A stretch of DNA of 64,000 nt from Alphaproteobacteria bacterium. GTDB taxonomy: Bacteria; Pseudomonadota; Alphaproteobacteria; CALKHQ01. The stretch spans positions 1,600,001 through 1,664,000 of the forward strand of contig CBDDFZ010000001.1 of assembly GCA_965227515.1 (NCBI GenBank), in the 5' to 3' direction. The translations under genes and the position numbers were made by a program. Below are positions 9,719 through 56,649 of this stretch, piece after piece. Numbering within the stretch: position 1 is the first letter of the stretch; every line of letters starts with the position of its first letter. Below the pieces are notes generated by a model, which was not told where the DNA came from, ran no database searches, and saw only the letters and a list, made by a program, of their open reading frames with translations.

Positions 9719-10287
9719 CCGCGCCCCGTAACGAGGGCGGGGTAGCCCAACACCCGGTCGTCATGCCCGCACTTGTTGCGGGCATCCACGTCTTGGCAAC
9801 GGTCGATGAAAGTCGTGGATGGTCGGGACAAGCCCGACCATGACGTGTTTGGGGGTGTGGCCGTCCCTACGTCTTCCGCTCGGTGTAAGACCCCTGCTTA
9901 TGAAAGAATCGTAGCCCGGGTGGAACGAAGTGGAACCCGGGGACATCGAACTGCCGGCGGCCGAACCCGGGTTTCGCTACGCTCCACCCGGGCTACGCAT
10001 TGCGCTGGGCCCCGCGCCCGGTAACGAGGGCGGGGTAGTCGAACACACGGTCGTCATGCCCGCACTTGTTGCGCGCATCCACGTCTTGGCAACGGTCGAT
10101 GAAAGTCGTGGATGGTCGGGACAAGCCCGACCATGACGTGTTTGGGGGTGTGGCCGTCCCTACGTCTTCCGCTCGGTGTAAGACCCCTGCTTATGAAAGA
10201 ATCGTAGCCCGGGTGGAACGAAGTGGAACCCGGGGACATCGAACTGCGGGCGGCCGAACCCGGGTTTCGCTACGCTCCACCCAGGCT
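9719..10287. repeat. 293-bp tandem duplication made of gene-tail copies, a CGTC hairpin and a GTAG REP doublet
   Basis: Near-identical units offset by 293 bp: hairpins 9759-9845 and 10052-10138; REP doublets 9911-9996 and 10204-10287. Confidence 0.92.
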
Positions 10288-10560
10288 TCTGTAACGGGCC
10301 ATTGTTGGTCAATCCCTTTTTCGTCGTCCCGGCGCCTGGGTCATGCTTCTGTACGGGGTCGGCGCACGGCCGCCACCAAGATGGATATGCGAGGATCGGT
10401 CGGTCCAATCTACGGAAGCGTGCTCTCGTGCGAGGCGACATCCTGGATGGCGGCCTGACCTGATCCATCGTCCCGGCGCGGGACGGCGCTTGACGGGCCG
10501 GTGTCTGCGCCCGCCGAAGCTCGTGTGCTGGTTCTCCCTATGCGGCGGTCGTCTTTGCCA
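10288..10560 (-). ncRNA. Putative bridge/seek RNA region of IS110 copy 1
   Basis: Contains segments matching the circle junction (10346-10353, 10378-10384) and the REP target (10410-10415, 10440-10450); exact transcript ends unknown. Confidence 0.65.
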
Positions 10561-11598
10561 TTAGGCCGCTGCCATCGCCGGGCGCACCGGTCCGGCATGG
10601 TTGAACGCGGTGCCGTCAACCCACATCCGGTGCATGATCACGGCCAGCCGGCGCGCCAGCGCGACCTTCGCCTTCCTCATGCCGGCTCGCCTGGCCAGCT
10701 TCATCGCCCAGCTCTTCAACCACCCGCCCTTGATCGGCCGGGTCAGGATTACGTGCGCCGCCTCGTAAAGCGCTGCACGCACGTCCGCATCGCCCACCTT
10801 CGAGATCCGCCCCGTCATCTCGCTCTCGCCCGACTGGCGCTTGGTCGGCGTCAGGCCGAAGTGCGCCCCCACCAGGCGCGACGAGGCAAACCGCCCGGGG
10901 TCGTCCACTCCCGACAAGTAGGTCAGTCCGACAATGCTCCCCACGCCCGGCACCGTCATCAGCAGGCGAGCGCGATCGTCCGCCTGCGATGCCGCTCGGA
11001 CCTGCCGGTCCAGCGCCGTGAACGATAGCAACAGGCCATCGCGTGCCGACAGCAGCGCCCCCGCCTCCAGTACCGGATGCCCCGCCACAAGCTCCGAAAT
11101 ACGTGTCGAAAAGCTGCGCCTGGTGGTGTGCCCTACCTTCAGCCCGAAGTTCCGCAGCTGACCACGAAGGTGCATCTCAAGATCGTGCAGCTTCGCGCGG
11201 AGCTGGTCGCGACCCTTCAAAAGGGCCCGCATCTCCTGGGCCGCCAAAGACTTGCAGTGAACCGGACGAAACCAGCCCACACGCATCAGCTGAGCAATCC
11301 CGCGTGCGTCCGAGCGGTCCGACTTCACCGGCATCGTCGAAAGGGCCCGCGCAACATGACGCGTCTCCAGCAACTCAACCGAAAGACCGCCCTCGCTACA
11401 TCCCCGCACAAGCCATTGCGACAACGGCCCCGCCTCAAGACCAATCCGCTCAACCGAAATCCCCAAAGACCCAAACCACAACAACAAACCCGCCGGCGTG
11501 CTCGCAATACGAGCCTCGCAGACAATCCCGCCCGCGCCGTCAACAACGCACACCGATGACCATTCCAAAGAAACGTCAATCCCGGCATAGTAGTTCAT
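10561..11598 (-). CDS. IS110-family DEDD recombinase/transposase
   Basis: AGIDVS, IGLEAG, KSDRSDA (DEDD), PGVG, RQSGE serine motif, VALARRLAVI; 2-aa deletion relative to copy 2. Confidence 0.96.
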   Translation of the reverse strand: MNYYAGIDVSLEWSSVCVVDGAGGIVCEARIASTPAGLLLWFGSLGISVERIGLEAGPLSQWLVRGCSEGGLSVELLETRHVARALSTMPVKSDRSDARGIAQLMRVGWFRPVHCKSLAAQEMRALLKGRDQLRAKLHDLEMHLRGQLRNFGLKVGHTTRRSFSTRISELVAGHPVLEAGALLSARDGLLLSFTALDRQVRAASQADDRARLLMTVPGVGSIVGLTYLSGVDDPGRFASSRLVGAHFGLTPTKRQSGESEMTGRISKVGDADVRAALYEAAHVILTRPIKGGWLKSWAMKLARRAGMRKAKVALARRLAVIMHRMWVDGTAFNHAGPVRPAMAAA

Positions 11599-11768
11599 GG
11601 TCGTCTCTCCTCGATGTCTTGGAGCGGCAAACCCGACTCCGTGTATGACACCGACATCTTGAGGGACGACCACTCATGCACGCCACCAAACAAGGGCCGT
11701 TAGCCCATCTACGCATCGCGCTGGATCGCCGCGCCCGGTGACGAGGGCGGGGTAGCCAAACACCCGGT

Positions 11769-11891
11769 CGTCATTGCGAGGAGCGCGGCACGCGCGACGC
11801 GGCAATCCAGAGGGACATTAGGCACGTGCACCGCAATCGCCTGGATCGCCCATCGGTTTTTGGGGCCGCCATTTGGCGGCTCGCGATGACG
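11769..11891. repeat. CGTC-tagged palindromic repeat, family C
   Basis: CGTCATTGCGAG...GCAATCCAG / CTGGATCGCC...CTCGCGATGACG; related copy at 17053-17165. Confidence 0.8.
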
Positions 11892-11899
11892 GCAAGAGT

Positions 11900-12685
11900 C
11901 TACGTCTTCCGCTCGGTGTACGACCCCTGCAGGTTCTGGAACATCTCCACCAGCGCGTCGACGGCGGCGTCGATCATGACCTTGCCGGACTCCGCGGTCG
12001 CGTGCTTCGGCGCACCGAAGATCGACGCATGGTTGGTGGTCGGGTTGGGCCGGCGCTGATAGGTGCGCACCGGCTCCACCGGTGCCACCAGGTCCCAGCC
12101 GACCAGCGGCGCGTGCACGCCCTCCAGCCGGTCCATGTGCACCAGCTCCGGCCGCGTCGCGAGCTGGAACGAGGTCTCGAACTCGCCGCCATGGCCCATG
12201 CCGCCGACCTCCGACTTGCGTGCGGCATGGATGGCAGCGGCCCCCGGCTCCCAGTAGCTGACGGCGGAGACCTTGAACTCGTAACGCTCGTCCAGATCGT
12301 CGACCAGCCGGCGCGCCACCGCATCGTTCGAGGTGCCGTTGGGCCGGTTGCCGTTGAGGATGATCAGGTGCTTGAAGCCCTGCTTGATCAGCGCGCTGCC
12401 AACCTCGTAGACCAGTTCCTGGTAGGTCGGGATCGACAGCGAGATGGTGCCCATGAAGTGCTCGAAGGTCTTTGAGATGCCATAGGCAATGGGCGGCGCC
12501 ACCACCGCGCCGATCCGCTCCGCCACCCGCAGCGCCATGTATTCGGCCTGGTGGGTGTCGGTGTCGACCGGCATGTGCGGGCCGTGCGCCTCGGTCGCGC
12601 CGGTGGGCAGGATGACGGCCCGCCCCTCGGCGACGACCTCCGCCACTTCGTCATAGGTCATGGTCGAAAGGGCAACGTTCATCAT
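11900..12685 (-). CDS. Creatininase/amidohydrolase family protein
   Basis: LPTGATEAHGPHMPVDTD, GHGGEFETS motifs. Confidence 0.9.
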   Translation of the reverse strand: MMNVALSTMTYDEVAEVVAEGRAVILPTGATEAHGPHMPVDTDTHQAEYMALRVAERIGAVVAPPIAYGISKTFEHFMGTISLSIPTYQELVYEVGSALIKQGFKHLIILNGNRPNGTSNDAVARRLVDDLDERYEFKVSAVSYWEPGAAAIHAARKSEVGGMGHGGEFETSFQLATRPELVHMDRLEGVHAPLVGWDLVAPVEPVRTYQRRPNPTTNHASIFGAPKHATAESGKVMIDAAVDALVEMFQNLQGSYTERKT

Positions 12686-12802
12686 TGTCTCCCGCGCGCA
12701 CATCGGCTTGTGTTGTCCGTCTGCCGGATATTATGCTCGGATAGCGGACATCGACAACTGTCCGCATATCCACCCGTCACCACCCGCCGAGAGTGCCGCC
12801 CA

Positions 12803-55087: not shown

Positions 55088-55175
55088 GTAGCCCGGATGG
55101 AGTGGAGCGCAATCCGGGTTTCGTTGTGACAACAACATCGATTGCCCCGGATTACGCTGGCGCTTCATCCGGGCT
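55088..55175. repeat. GTAG REP doublet interrupted at its end by IS110 copy 2
   Basis: GTAGCCCGGATGG...CATCCGGGCT, with the final AC displaced to 56596. Confidence 0.9.
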
Positions 55176-55439
55176 TCTGTAACGGGCCATTGTTGGTCAA
55201 TCCCTTTTTCGTCGTCCCGGCGCCTGGGTCATGCTTCTGTACGGGGTCGGCGCAGGGCCGCCGCCAAGATGGATATGCGAGGATCGGTCGGTCCAATCTA
55301 CGGAAGCGTGCTCTCATGCGAGGCGACATCCCGGATGGCGGCCTGACCTGATCCATCGTCCCGGCGCGGGACGGCGCTCGACGGGCCGGTGTCGGTGCCC
55401 GTCGAAGCTCGTGTGTCGGTTCTCCTTATGCCGCGGCCA
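55176..55439 (-). ncRNA. Putative bridge/seek RNA region of IS110 copy 2
   Basis: Conserved with copy 1; target-like segments at 55298-55303 and 55328-55338. Confidence 0.65.
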
Positions 55440-56483
55440 TCATGCTGTCGCCATCGCCGGGCGCACCGGTCCGGCATGGTTGAACGGTGTGCCGTCAACC
55501 CACATCCGGTGCATGATCACGGCGAGCCGGCGCGCCAGCGCGACCTTCGCCTTCCTCATGCCGGCTCGCCTGGCCAGCTTCATCGCCCAGCTCTTCAGCC
55601 AGCCGCCCTCGATCGGCCGGGTCAGAACCACGTGCGCCGCCTCATAGAGGGCCGAGCGCACATCGGCGTCCCCCACCTTCGAGATCCGCCCCGTCATCTC
55701 GCTCTCGCCCGACTGGCGCTTGGTCGGCGTCAGGCCGAAGTGCGCACCCACCAGGCGCGACGAGGCAAACCGCCCGGGGTCGTCCACTCCCGACAAGTAG
55801 GTCAGTCCGACAATGCTCCCCACGCCCGGCACCGTCATCAGCAGGCGAGCGCGATCGTCCGCCTGCGATGCCGCTCGGACCTGCCGGTCCAGCGCCGTGA
55901 ACGATAGCAACAGGCCATCGCGTGCCGACAGCAGCGCCCCCGCCACCGCCTCCAGTACCGGATGCCCCGCCACAAGCTCCGAAATACGTGTCGAAAAGCT
56001 GCGCCTGGTGGTGTGCCCTACCTTCAGCCCGAAGTTCCGCAGCTGACCACGAAGGTGCATCTCAAGATCGTGCAGCTTCGCGCGGAGCTGGTCGCGACCC
56101 TTCAAAAGGGCCCGCATCTCCTGGGCCGCCAAAGACTTGCAGTGAACCGGACGAAACCAGCCCACACGCATCAGCTGAGCAATCCCGCGTGCGTCCGAGC
56201 GGTCCGACTTCACCGGCATCGTCGAAAGCGCTCGCGCAACATGACGCGTCTCCAGCAACTCAACCGAAAGACCGCCCTCGCTACATCCCCGCACAAGCCA
56301 TTGCGACAACGGCCCCGCCTCAAGACCAATCCGCTCAACCGAAATCCCCAAAGACCCAAACCACAACAACAAACCCGCCGGCGTGCTCGCAATACGAGCC
56401 TCGCAGACAATCCCGCCCGCGCCGTCAACAACGCATACCGATGACCATTCCAAAGAAACGTCAATCCCGGCATAGTAGTTCAT
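55440..56483 (-). CDS. IS110-family DEDD recombinase/transposase
   Basis: Same DEDD and QSG motifs as copy 1; intact 347 aa. Confidence 0.96.
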   Translation of the reverse strand: MNYYAGIDVSLEWSSVCVVDGAGGIVCEARIASTPAGLLLWFGSLGISVERIGLEAGPLSQWLVRGCSEGGLSVELLETRHVARALSTMPVKSDRSDARGIAQLMRVGWFRPVHCKSLAAQEMRALLKGRDQLRAKLHDLEMHLRGQLRNFGLKVGHTTRRSFSTRISELVAGHPVLEAVAGALLSARDGLLLSFTALDRQVRAASQADDRARLLMTVPGVGSIVGLTYLSGVDDPGRFASSRLVGAHFGLTPTKRQSGESEMTGRISKVGDADVRSALYEAAHVVLTRPIEGGWLKSWAMKLARRAGMRKAKVALARRLAVIMHRMWVDGTPFNHAGPVRPAMATA

Positions 56484-56649
56484 GGTCGTCTCTCCTCGAT
56501 GTCTTGGAGCGGCAAACCCGACTCCGTGTATGACACCGACATCTTGAGGGACGACCACTCATGCACGCCACCAAACAAGGGCCGTTAGCCCATCTACGGG
56601 TCCGTGGCATCGCGCCCGCCGACGCACGAGTACGAGGGAAGCAACAGCA

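Follow-up and report, generated by a model that had tools for sequence, protein, structure and literature searches.

The 64,000-nucleotide (nt) stretch of contig CBDDFZ010000001.1 analysed here (the window) comes from an alphaproteobacterial genome and holds two copies of one insertion sequence, both on the minus strand and 95% identical to each other. Each copy has a gene for a DEDD transposase of the IS110 family and, 3′ of it, a longer non-coding region. A sequence-only reading had proposed that this region specifies a bridge (seek) RNA, one target-guide base of which differs between the two copies together with the target. Comparison of all copies in the genome and of homologous loci elsewhere leads us to the view, held at a probability of about 0.88, that the region encodes the bridge RNA of an IS1111-group, IS110-family insertion sequence.

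The transposase matches PF01548 (E = 9.4e-13; 48.7 bits, cut-off 29) and PF02371 (E = 1.1e-19; 71.1 bits, cut-off 21.3), and both window copies have these domains. Its C-terminal domain can be aligned to the solved IS621 and ISCro4 chains (E = 8e-10 for IS621), with GLTPTKRQSG placed opposite GLTPRRYESG of both chains at high posterior probability. The N-terminal motifs that bear on the catalytic D-E-D-D residues (GIDVS, EA and D..DAR) are covered by an alignment to ISCro4 only, a weak one at 4.5 bits, and by none to IS621. A length of 345–347 amino acids and the GLTPTKRQSG motif agree with the 330–350 amino acids and the GL-P----S(t)G signature given for IS1111 elements in the part of PMC11187229 available to us. 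The gene is followed by 275 nt of non-coding DNA and preceded by 110 nt, the longer side being downstream as is characteristic of IS1111 elements, and the ends carry a subterminal inverted repeat (pair I5) of 18 nt with 78% complementarity, where 7–17 base pairs (bp) or more are expected for the group. In 20 of 20 full copies in the genome the junctions read GTAG/ATGGGC...ACAGAAG/CC in the transposase sense (slashes mark the element boundaries); as is usual in the IS110 family, terminal inverted repeats are absent, and at neither junction is there a target duplication beyond a shared AG dinucleotide (CT on the other strand), which behaves like the core dinucleotide of the IS110 family. Because of its Pfam domains, the GLTP....SG motif, the subterminal repeat, the non-coding layout and the lack of target duplication, the element is assigned to the IS1111 group of the IS110 family.

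RNA structure and guide segments

A scan with one genome per species yielded 75 homologous loci with 37–71% protein identity, mostly from alphaproteobacterial genomes and metagenome bins; the nearest relatives found have 63–71%. An RNAalifold consensus from 19 sequences of the downstream region contains three helices. In this seed alignment the share of paired cells is 92.5%, and the covariation score of 0.46, compared with 0.22 after shuffling, is reached by 0 of 500 shuffles; the pair counts exceed those of every shuffle and of every slid control. The covariance model built on it, R1, matches 63 of the 75 homologous loci, 46 of them outside the seed and hence independent support. Every match lies in the transposase sense just 3′ of the gene; within the window, R1 finds both element copies and nothing else. 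Across 53 distinct matches, 26 of the 27 pairs show compensatory changes and pairing holds in 94.4% of cells, as opposed to 30–52% when partners are slid by 1–3 columns; this alignment was fitted to R1 and so favours the structure, and the seed-only counts agree with it. G·U pairs are frequent (43 of 53 sequences at columns 42/105, for instance) and would become A·C on the opposite strand, a pattern that agrees with an RNA of the transposase sense only.

The three helices are an outer stem (P1), a stem (P2) that closes the target-binding loop and a hairpin (P3) between the donor guides (Table 1). P2, helix 2 of the consensus (10466-10451 with 10407-10393), is the closing stem that had been proposed from copy 1 as 10393-10405 paired with 10452-10466. 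An internal loop between P2 and a putative apical hairpin has one target guide on each side, and the two donor guides lie in a multiloop. The apical hairpin is absent from the RNAalifold prediction, its lengths being variable, and is read from the sequence; the homologue alignment has a hairpin at the same place. With the window's plus strand taken as top, the target guides measure 9 and 6 nt and the donor guides 7 and 8 nt. Their positions, like those of the closing stem and the flanks, are as the sequence-only reading had placed them on the minus strand. In the transposase sense, copy 1 is flanked as GCGTAG/element/CCTGGGTGG and copy 2 as CCGTAG/element/CCCGGATGA. The proposed 5′ target guide falls within CCATCCAGGAT (10450-10440) in copy 1 and CCATCCGGGAT (55338-55328) in copy 2, and in copy 1 it can pair with the right flank at 10277-10285, one U·G wobble included. 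The proposed 3′ donor guide, read as DNA, is TACAGAAG (10353-10346), a direct repeat (D5) of the right terminus at 10293-10286.

Table 1. Coordinates of the element copies, of the proposed RNA with its guides, and of the flanking targets in the window.
Feature	Coordinates	Strand	Remarks
Element copy 1, A-guide sub-lineage	10286-11708	-	1,423 bp; ends by alignment with copy 2 and 18 other genomic copies
Copy 1 transposase gene, DEDD / IS110 family	10561-11598	-	345 amino acids plus stop
Left subterminal inverted repeat	11685-11702		6 nt in from left terminus; pair I5
Right subterminal inverted repeat	10292-10309		6 nt in from right terminus; pair I5
Left-flank target of copy 1, GCGTAG	11709-11714	-	core AG (CT on plus strand) at 11709-11710
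Right-flank target of copy 1, CCTGGGTGG	10277-10285	-	first arm of palindrome resembling a repetitive extragenic palindromic (REP) sequence
RNA core, model R1	10326-10486	-	130.5 bits, E = 6e-31; copy 1 is in the seed, so match by construction
Outer stem P1, 5′ strand	10472-10483	-	helix 1; pairs with 10328-10339; compensatory changes at 10/10 pairs
Outer stem P1, 3′ strand	10328-10339	-	
Closing stem P2 of target-binding loop, 5′ strand	10451-10466	-	helix 2; compensatory changes at 11/12 pairs
Closing stem P2, 3′ strand	10393-10407	-	
Proposed 5′ target guide CCAUCCAGG	10442-10450	-	variable base 10444
Putative apical hairpin between target guides	10422-10436	-	read from sequence; loop base 10428 C or U
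Proposed 3′ target guide CCGUAG	10410-10415	-	identical to transposase-sense left flank plus core (xCGTAG)
Proposed 5′ donor guide CCAUCUU	10378-10384	-	CCATCTT at 10384-10378; identical to CT-frame circle junction CCAT-CT-T
Hairpin P3 between donor guides	10357-10374	-	helix 3; compensatory changes at 5/5 pairs; 99.2% of cells paired
Proposed 3′ donor guide UACAGAAG	10346-10353	-	identical to right terminus including core
TTGACC, -35-like hexamer	10307-10312	-	27 nt from right terminus; tentative junction promoter
Element copy 2, G-guide sub-lineage	55174-56593	-	1,420 bp; guide CCAUCCGGG at 55330-55338, variable base 55332
Copy 2 RNA core	55214-55374	-	
Copy 2 transposase gene	55440-56483	-	

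Two other structural candidates were set aside. An energy fold of the single sequence, in which a target guide pairs with a donor guide, contradicts the comparative structure and was rejected for the covariation-supported fold. The 8-nt segment ACCCAGGC (~10343-10336), in the outer stem, is the longest exact match to the left target but does not fall within the proposed guide. It was ruled out as an additional target guide, since it is unchanged in the G-guide copies, does not follow the target in the homologues and covaries with its stem partner instead. Separately, a local hairpin GUCCC...GGGAC (10468-10484 versus 10328-10339) is kept in nearly all homologues. It excludes the covarying outer stem and may be an alternative conformation of a longer transcript.

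Guide variation and insertion sites

The genome (5.5 Mb, two contigs) contains 20 full copies of the element, all with an intact transposase frame, and one internally deleted copy. The left flanks differ in all 20 full copies, which are therefore separate insertions. On the left, every flank ends in GTAG and 15 of 20 in CGTAG; on the right, the transposase-sense sequence is CC(C/T)GG(A/G)TG in all 20 and forms the first arm of a REP-like palindrome. The copies form two sub-lineages separated by 27 fixed differences, all within the last ~320 nt (alignment column 1106 or beyond); upstream of column 1106 the differences between them are not fixed. Only four differences fall in the RNA region: 10444 (A/G) in the 5′ target guide, 10428 in the hairpin loop, and 10375 and 10367 in or beside the donor hairpin. 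Position 10444 is A (CCAUCCAGG) in seven copies and G (CCAUCCGGG) in 13. Termini and donor guides are identical between the sub-lineages, and their proteins differ consistently only at the extreme C-terminal tail.

The link between guide base and flank, first noticed between the two window copies, holds over these 20 independent insertions. All seven A-guide copies occupy CCTGG sites; among the 13 G-guide copies, 11 occupy CCCGG sites and two CCTGG sites, with which the guide could pair by a G·T wobble (Fisher's exact p = 4.6e-4). The four target variants, each followed by CTACG, are CCACCCAGG, CCATCCAGG, CCATCCGGG and CCACCCGGG. Candidate sites of the form A(C/T)CC(A/G)GG-CT-AC, counted on both strands and pooled as empty plus occupied, number ~144 in four classes (Table 2). 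G-guide copies fill 9 of 30 ATCCGGG sites (perfect match), 2 of 67 ACCCGGG sites (one wobble) and 2 of 43 ACCCAGG sites (two wobbles). A-guide copies fill 1 of 4 perfectly matching sites and 6 of 43 single-wobble sites; they are absent from all 97 sites at which their guide would face an A·C mismatch. Site occupancy thus tracks pairing quality, as base pairing predicts. The commonest candidate class, CCACCCGGG-CTAC, has no perfectly matching guide variant in the genome and is occupied only twice.

Table 2. Candidate sites in the genome and their occupancy by the two sub-lineages.
Site class	Empty	Pool	A guide	G guide
ACCCGGG	65	67	0	2
ACCCAGG	35	43	6	2
ATCCGGG	21	30	0	9
ATCCAGG	3	4	1	0

The correlation of guide with flank, which the sequence-only reading had asked to be sought in all genomic and homologous copies, is also present among the homologues. 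The subterminal repeat allowed element ends to be placed in 36 of the 49 loci examined, and guide windows could be anchored in 28 of these 36; L007, L035, L037, L039, L040, L048, L052 and L053 were left out of the guide-run counts (by eye, the L035 guide matches its flank and the L007 guide does not). The left flank ends in AG at 34 of the 36 homologue junctions, the exceptions, L052 and L053, having doubtful end assignments. Target guides were compared with flanks in anchor-based windows, since in a column-by-column comparison conserved columns swamp the signal and the register shifts by 1–2 nt; only the donor-guide columns were usable in that way. The 28 homologous loci and the 20 copies of the window's genome, which carry 20 distinct guide pairs, give 48 cognate pairs. 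For the longest Watson-Crick run of the 5′ target guide with the right flank, the median is 8 in these cognate pairs and 4 in 912 non-cognate pairs, 1.1% of which reach 8. With wobble allowed, 23 of the 28 homologous loci have a run of at least 7. L002 and L003, from one assembled genome, have guide U and C with flank A and G, repeating the two-copy observation, and L008 and L018 have a G·T wobble like that of the two G-guide exceptions. All four guide segments vary with flank or terminus in at least some homologues. The 3′ target guide follows the left flank in L006 among others (11 nt in L014 and L015, 8 in L030 and 7 in L024). The 3′ donor guide (columns 156 and 157) tracks the two variable positions of the right terminus, 7 and 8, in 19 of 19 aligned sequences, and the 5′ donor guide tracks left-end variants in L005, L018 and L050 and, imperfectly, in L004 and L035. 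As a side observation, L014 carries its whole RNA region in tandem (2297-2461 and 2550-2714) and measures 1,666 bp, compared with 1,413 bp in its sisters L015 and L017.

These data bear on another explanation, in which the protein itself reads the REP hairpin for target choice and the guide-like segments are functionless REP-like sequence in the non-coding region. The targets in this genome are indeed REP-like palindromes, a target stem-loop aids recognition in ISPpu10, as far as the available text on that element goes, and an unrelated 8-nt target match does occur in the outer stem. Homologue targets, however, vary widely (AATCCGCC, CATGCGGG, GGAGCGCGC, AAAGTAATG, CATGTCCG and TTCCGTCC), so the guide signal is not a property of a single REP; homologues with different targets, some of them not palindrome arms, have matching guides at the same structural position (GGAGCGCGC in L014, L015 and L017, AAAGTAATG in L018 and CAAACCTT in L035). 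The confinement of consistent protein differences to the C-terminal tail and the fact that the link of A/G to T/C obeys base-pairing rules, wobble included, also argue for the RNA, and we regard recognition by the protein alone as very unlikely.

Several points weigh against the bridge RNA reading. The 5′ target guide has AU and not CU after it, which leaves the first core base unpaired; the sequence-only reading was right to flag this mismatch at the core C, which is shared with the nearest homologues L006 and L009, while other clades have CU. The 3′ target guide is short and loose past GTAG, with CCGTAG in only 4 of 20 flanks, and among the 48 pairs its cognate median is 5 against 3 for non-cognate pairs, 13% of which reach 5. 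Within the genome the guide varies at one position only. Runs shorter than 7 were found in L005, L024, L026, L030 and L050 of the 28 loci, and the guide of L007 mismatches its own flank although its sister L004 matches the same kind of site. The single-sequence fold is non-significant over the full region (z = -0.72; z = -2.41 for a shorter stretch) and proved uninformative; the fold that had been suggested as a check finds its support in comparative covariation. Rfam 15 returned no relevant match for 10100-11900 at E up to 10, which with 4,227 families says little; microRNA-like Rfam matches on the REP palindrome were rejected as chance-level. Lastly, copy 1 alone stands barely above chance: 96 of 2,000 dinucleotide shuffles of the non-coding region equal its summed exact-match length.

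This last count is what speaks for chance, in G+C-rich and repeat-rich DNA, as the source of the guide matches and of the two-copy covariation. None of the 2,000 shuffles reproduces all four guide matches together, though, and neither the association over 20 copies nor the persistence of structure and guide covariation across the family fits chance, an explanation that is already disfavoured and that we find barely credible. The observation is convincing because of the comparative data (20 genomic copies, 75 homologous loci) and not through copy 1 alone. The assignment to an IS110/IS1111 bridge RNA, made at the outset from two copies, is borne out by compensatory changes, guide covariation and a strand logic that agrees with published systems.

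In L007 the 5′ guide is CAUCAUGCU and the site, AGCGGTTT, is like that of L004; both loci come from one metagenome bin. L007 could be a trans-guided insertion, or its guide could have changed after insertion.

Proposed mechanism and possible cis preference

The RNA, read in the transposase sense, is predicted to fold as a three-way junction of outer stem, target-binding arm and multiloop. The internal loop of the target-binding arm would present a 9-nt 5′ guide and a 6-nt 3′ guide, and the multiloop the two donor guides with a short hairpin between them. In the CT-core orientation (the window's plus strand), the target is CCA(C/T)CC(A/G)GG-CT-ACG and the putative donor circle junction ...GCCCAT-CT-TCTGTA.... 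The 5′ guide of each pair has the top-strand sequence and so would pair with the bottom strand; each 3′ guide is the complement of the top strand, core included. With this RNA loaded, the DEDD recombinase would then act at the CT core and join the excised circle to a REP-like palindrome at its edge. An A guide is expected to pair with T and lead to CCTGG sites, and a G guide to pair with C and lead to CCCGG sites, with a possible wobble to T, so that the one-base difference in the 5′ target guide would make the insertion sites of the sub-lineages differ accordingly. By analogy with ISEc11, ISPa11 and ISKpn4 (PMC11187229) and IS621 (PMC11208160), as those sources describe them in the parts available, the RNA is probably made, bound by the recombinase and used in the same chemistry; in relatives, the processed RNA measures 80–100 nt. 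The claim that this is a naturally reprogrammed guide tracking REP variants stands as an association; it concerns one base only, and the principle had already been published.

The sub-lineages have identical ends and donor guides, yet A-guide copies are absent from sites that only the G guide fits, which hints at a preference in cis. We tentatively suggest, short of even odds, that each bridge RNA acts mainly on the circle that encodes it, and that a single guide mutation can found a sub-lineage colonising another class of REP site. If so, the occupancies would give natural in vivo pairing rules, with a perfect match used about ten times as often as a single wobble and an A·C mismatch excluded. 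Within the library searched, no bridge RNA paper was found that mentions cis preference or acting in cis.

A possible means for such a preference lies at the circle junction. A TTGAC-type hexamer, a 16–18-nt spacer and a -10-like hexamer span the junction in 30 of 33 elements examined, the -10-like hexamer being GAAG/AT in 27 elements and a variant in L039, L040 and L043. The -10 is weak, with 3 of 6 consensus positions, and its bases are also constrained as donor sequence. A promoter-like site in the linear element was looked for and not found. A junction promoter would co-transcribe the transposase gene and the RNA from the circle and thereby provide a cis mechanism.

The guide may equally be real while the match of each sub-lineage to its own sites reflects history, through separate times of activity or arrival or through exchange of 3′ ends after insertion, an account that competes with the cis preference only and leaves the bridge RNA reading untouched. 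We place it just below an even chance. The confinement of the 27 fixed differences to the last ~320 nt suggests mosaicism, trans action has been obtained experimentally for ISPpu10 (bioRxiv 10.64898/2026.03.19.712850) and in a trans assay for IS1111-type elements (PMC11187229), both according to the available portions of those reports, and action in trans could account for L007 and for the two G-guide copies in CCTGG sites. On the other hand, pairs of 100% identical copies occur within each sub-lineage, which suggests recent activity of both, and free mixing should have placed some of the seven A-guide copies in CCCGG sites, where none is found.

Further features of the element and its surroundings may be recorded here. 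The 21st copy, outside the window at C1:998357-999190, has an internal deletion of ~600 bp between GGACCG microhomologies and has lost the 3′ half of the gene and both target guides; its right terminus is mutated (TTATAGAAG), it has the A-lineage markers and it sits in a CCTGGGTGG (CCTGG) site. Four G-guide copies (C1:807746, C1:1595887, C1:2043151 and C2:1238439) share similar sequence past the right-side REP (...gaggtgaaggt) and have unrelated left flanks, and this REP could be part of some other repeat. At its right end, copy 1 abuts 1.9 repeats (97% matches) of a 293-bp unit at 9719-10287; on the minus strand, this tract has an unoccupied site, GCGTAG/CCCGGGTGG, at 9984-9998. The open reading frame 11900-12703 has its last 31 nt repeated at 10160-10190 and again, by the 293-bp period, near 9867-9897; from the repeat and the recurring end we take copy 1 to sit in a duplicated REP-bearing module. 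Six further PF02371 matches in the genome (C1:85805, C1:2520810, C1:3321533, C2:1183768, C1:1351017 and C1:1792881) represent four copies of a second IS110-family element and two singletons. A search of plasmids for near-identical element DNA gave no match, and a DNA search of 40 relatives did not find the element, one weak 41-nt match in G036 apart.

Significance and relation to known systems

RNA-guided recombination by IS110/IS1111 elements was published in 2024, and the present element adds no new principle. The one new point it may offer is that each element tends to occupy the site that matches its own guide despite identical ends. It does provide a natural experiment, with 20 intact copies in one genome, two guide variants one base apart and ~144 candidate sites in four classes, and a family of 63 or more homologous loci, whose structure model is well supported and represents a branch of the IS1111 group that is without an Rfam family. 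Possible uses are an in vivo calibration of the mismatch and wobble tolerance of an IS1111-type guide, a test of bridge RNA cis preference under natural expression, and the annotation of bridge RNAs in alphaproteobacterial genomes.

The comparisons that follow draw on the accessible parts of the cited papers. RNA from the downstream region of four IS1111-type elements, ISEc11, ISPa11, ISKpn4 and ISPst6, co-purifies with the transposase (PMC11187229; Siddiquee et al. 2024), and this seekRNA is required for transposition, has one match per target strand and can be reprogrammed. The present element resembles all four in its DEDD transposase of about 330–350 amino acids with the GL-P----S(t)G motif, in its subterminal inverted repeats and long non-coding region downstream of the gene, and in an RNA segment that matches each target strand, the matches overlapping at the insertion point. 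ISPa11 likewise targets REP sequences. The present element is nevertheless a different one, with another target sequence, and the co-residence of two variants one guide base apart distinguishes it as well.

IS621 (PMC11208160; Durrant et al. 2024; structures 8wt6 and others) has a 5′ guide of 8–9 nt that pairs with the bottom strand and a 3′ guide of 4–7 nt that pairs with the top strand, the core dinucleotide included. According to the same source, 93% of IS1111 elements have a bridge RNA predicted in the right end, in many cases with a multiloop that contains donor-binding nucleotides, and natural guide variants agree with natural target motifs. IS621 and the present element share four guides in two pairs, a CT core, the strand logic, the guide lengths, the inclusion of the core in the pairings and an alignable C-terminal domain. 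In contrast to IS621, the RNA here lies 3′ of the gene and not 5′, the target has the opposite orientation with respect to the gene, a multiloop and not an internal loop contains the donor guides, the 5′ target guide misses the core C, and the N-terminal domain aligns weakly.

ISPpu10 and ISPpu9 of Pseudomonas putida (bioRxiv 10.64898/2026.03.19.712850; PMC12288879) also insert into REP sequences. Wobbles (U·G and G·T) at the interface of target and guide are known for ISPpu10 and IS621 from the former report, and tolerance of a wobble at the left target guide is common to the Pseudomonas elements and the present one, as is a junction promoter with its -35 in the right end, tentative here. The RNA of ISPpu10 lies in the left end, and all ISPpu10 insertions are at identical copies of one target. 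Two guide variants that use two REP classes, as in the genome analysed here, are not described for ISPpu10 or ISPpu9 in the parts of these sources available to us.

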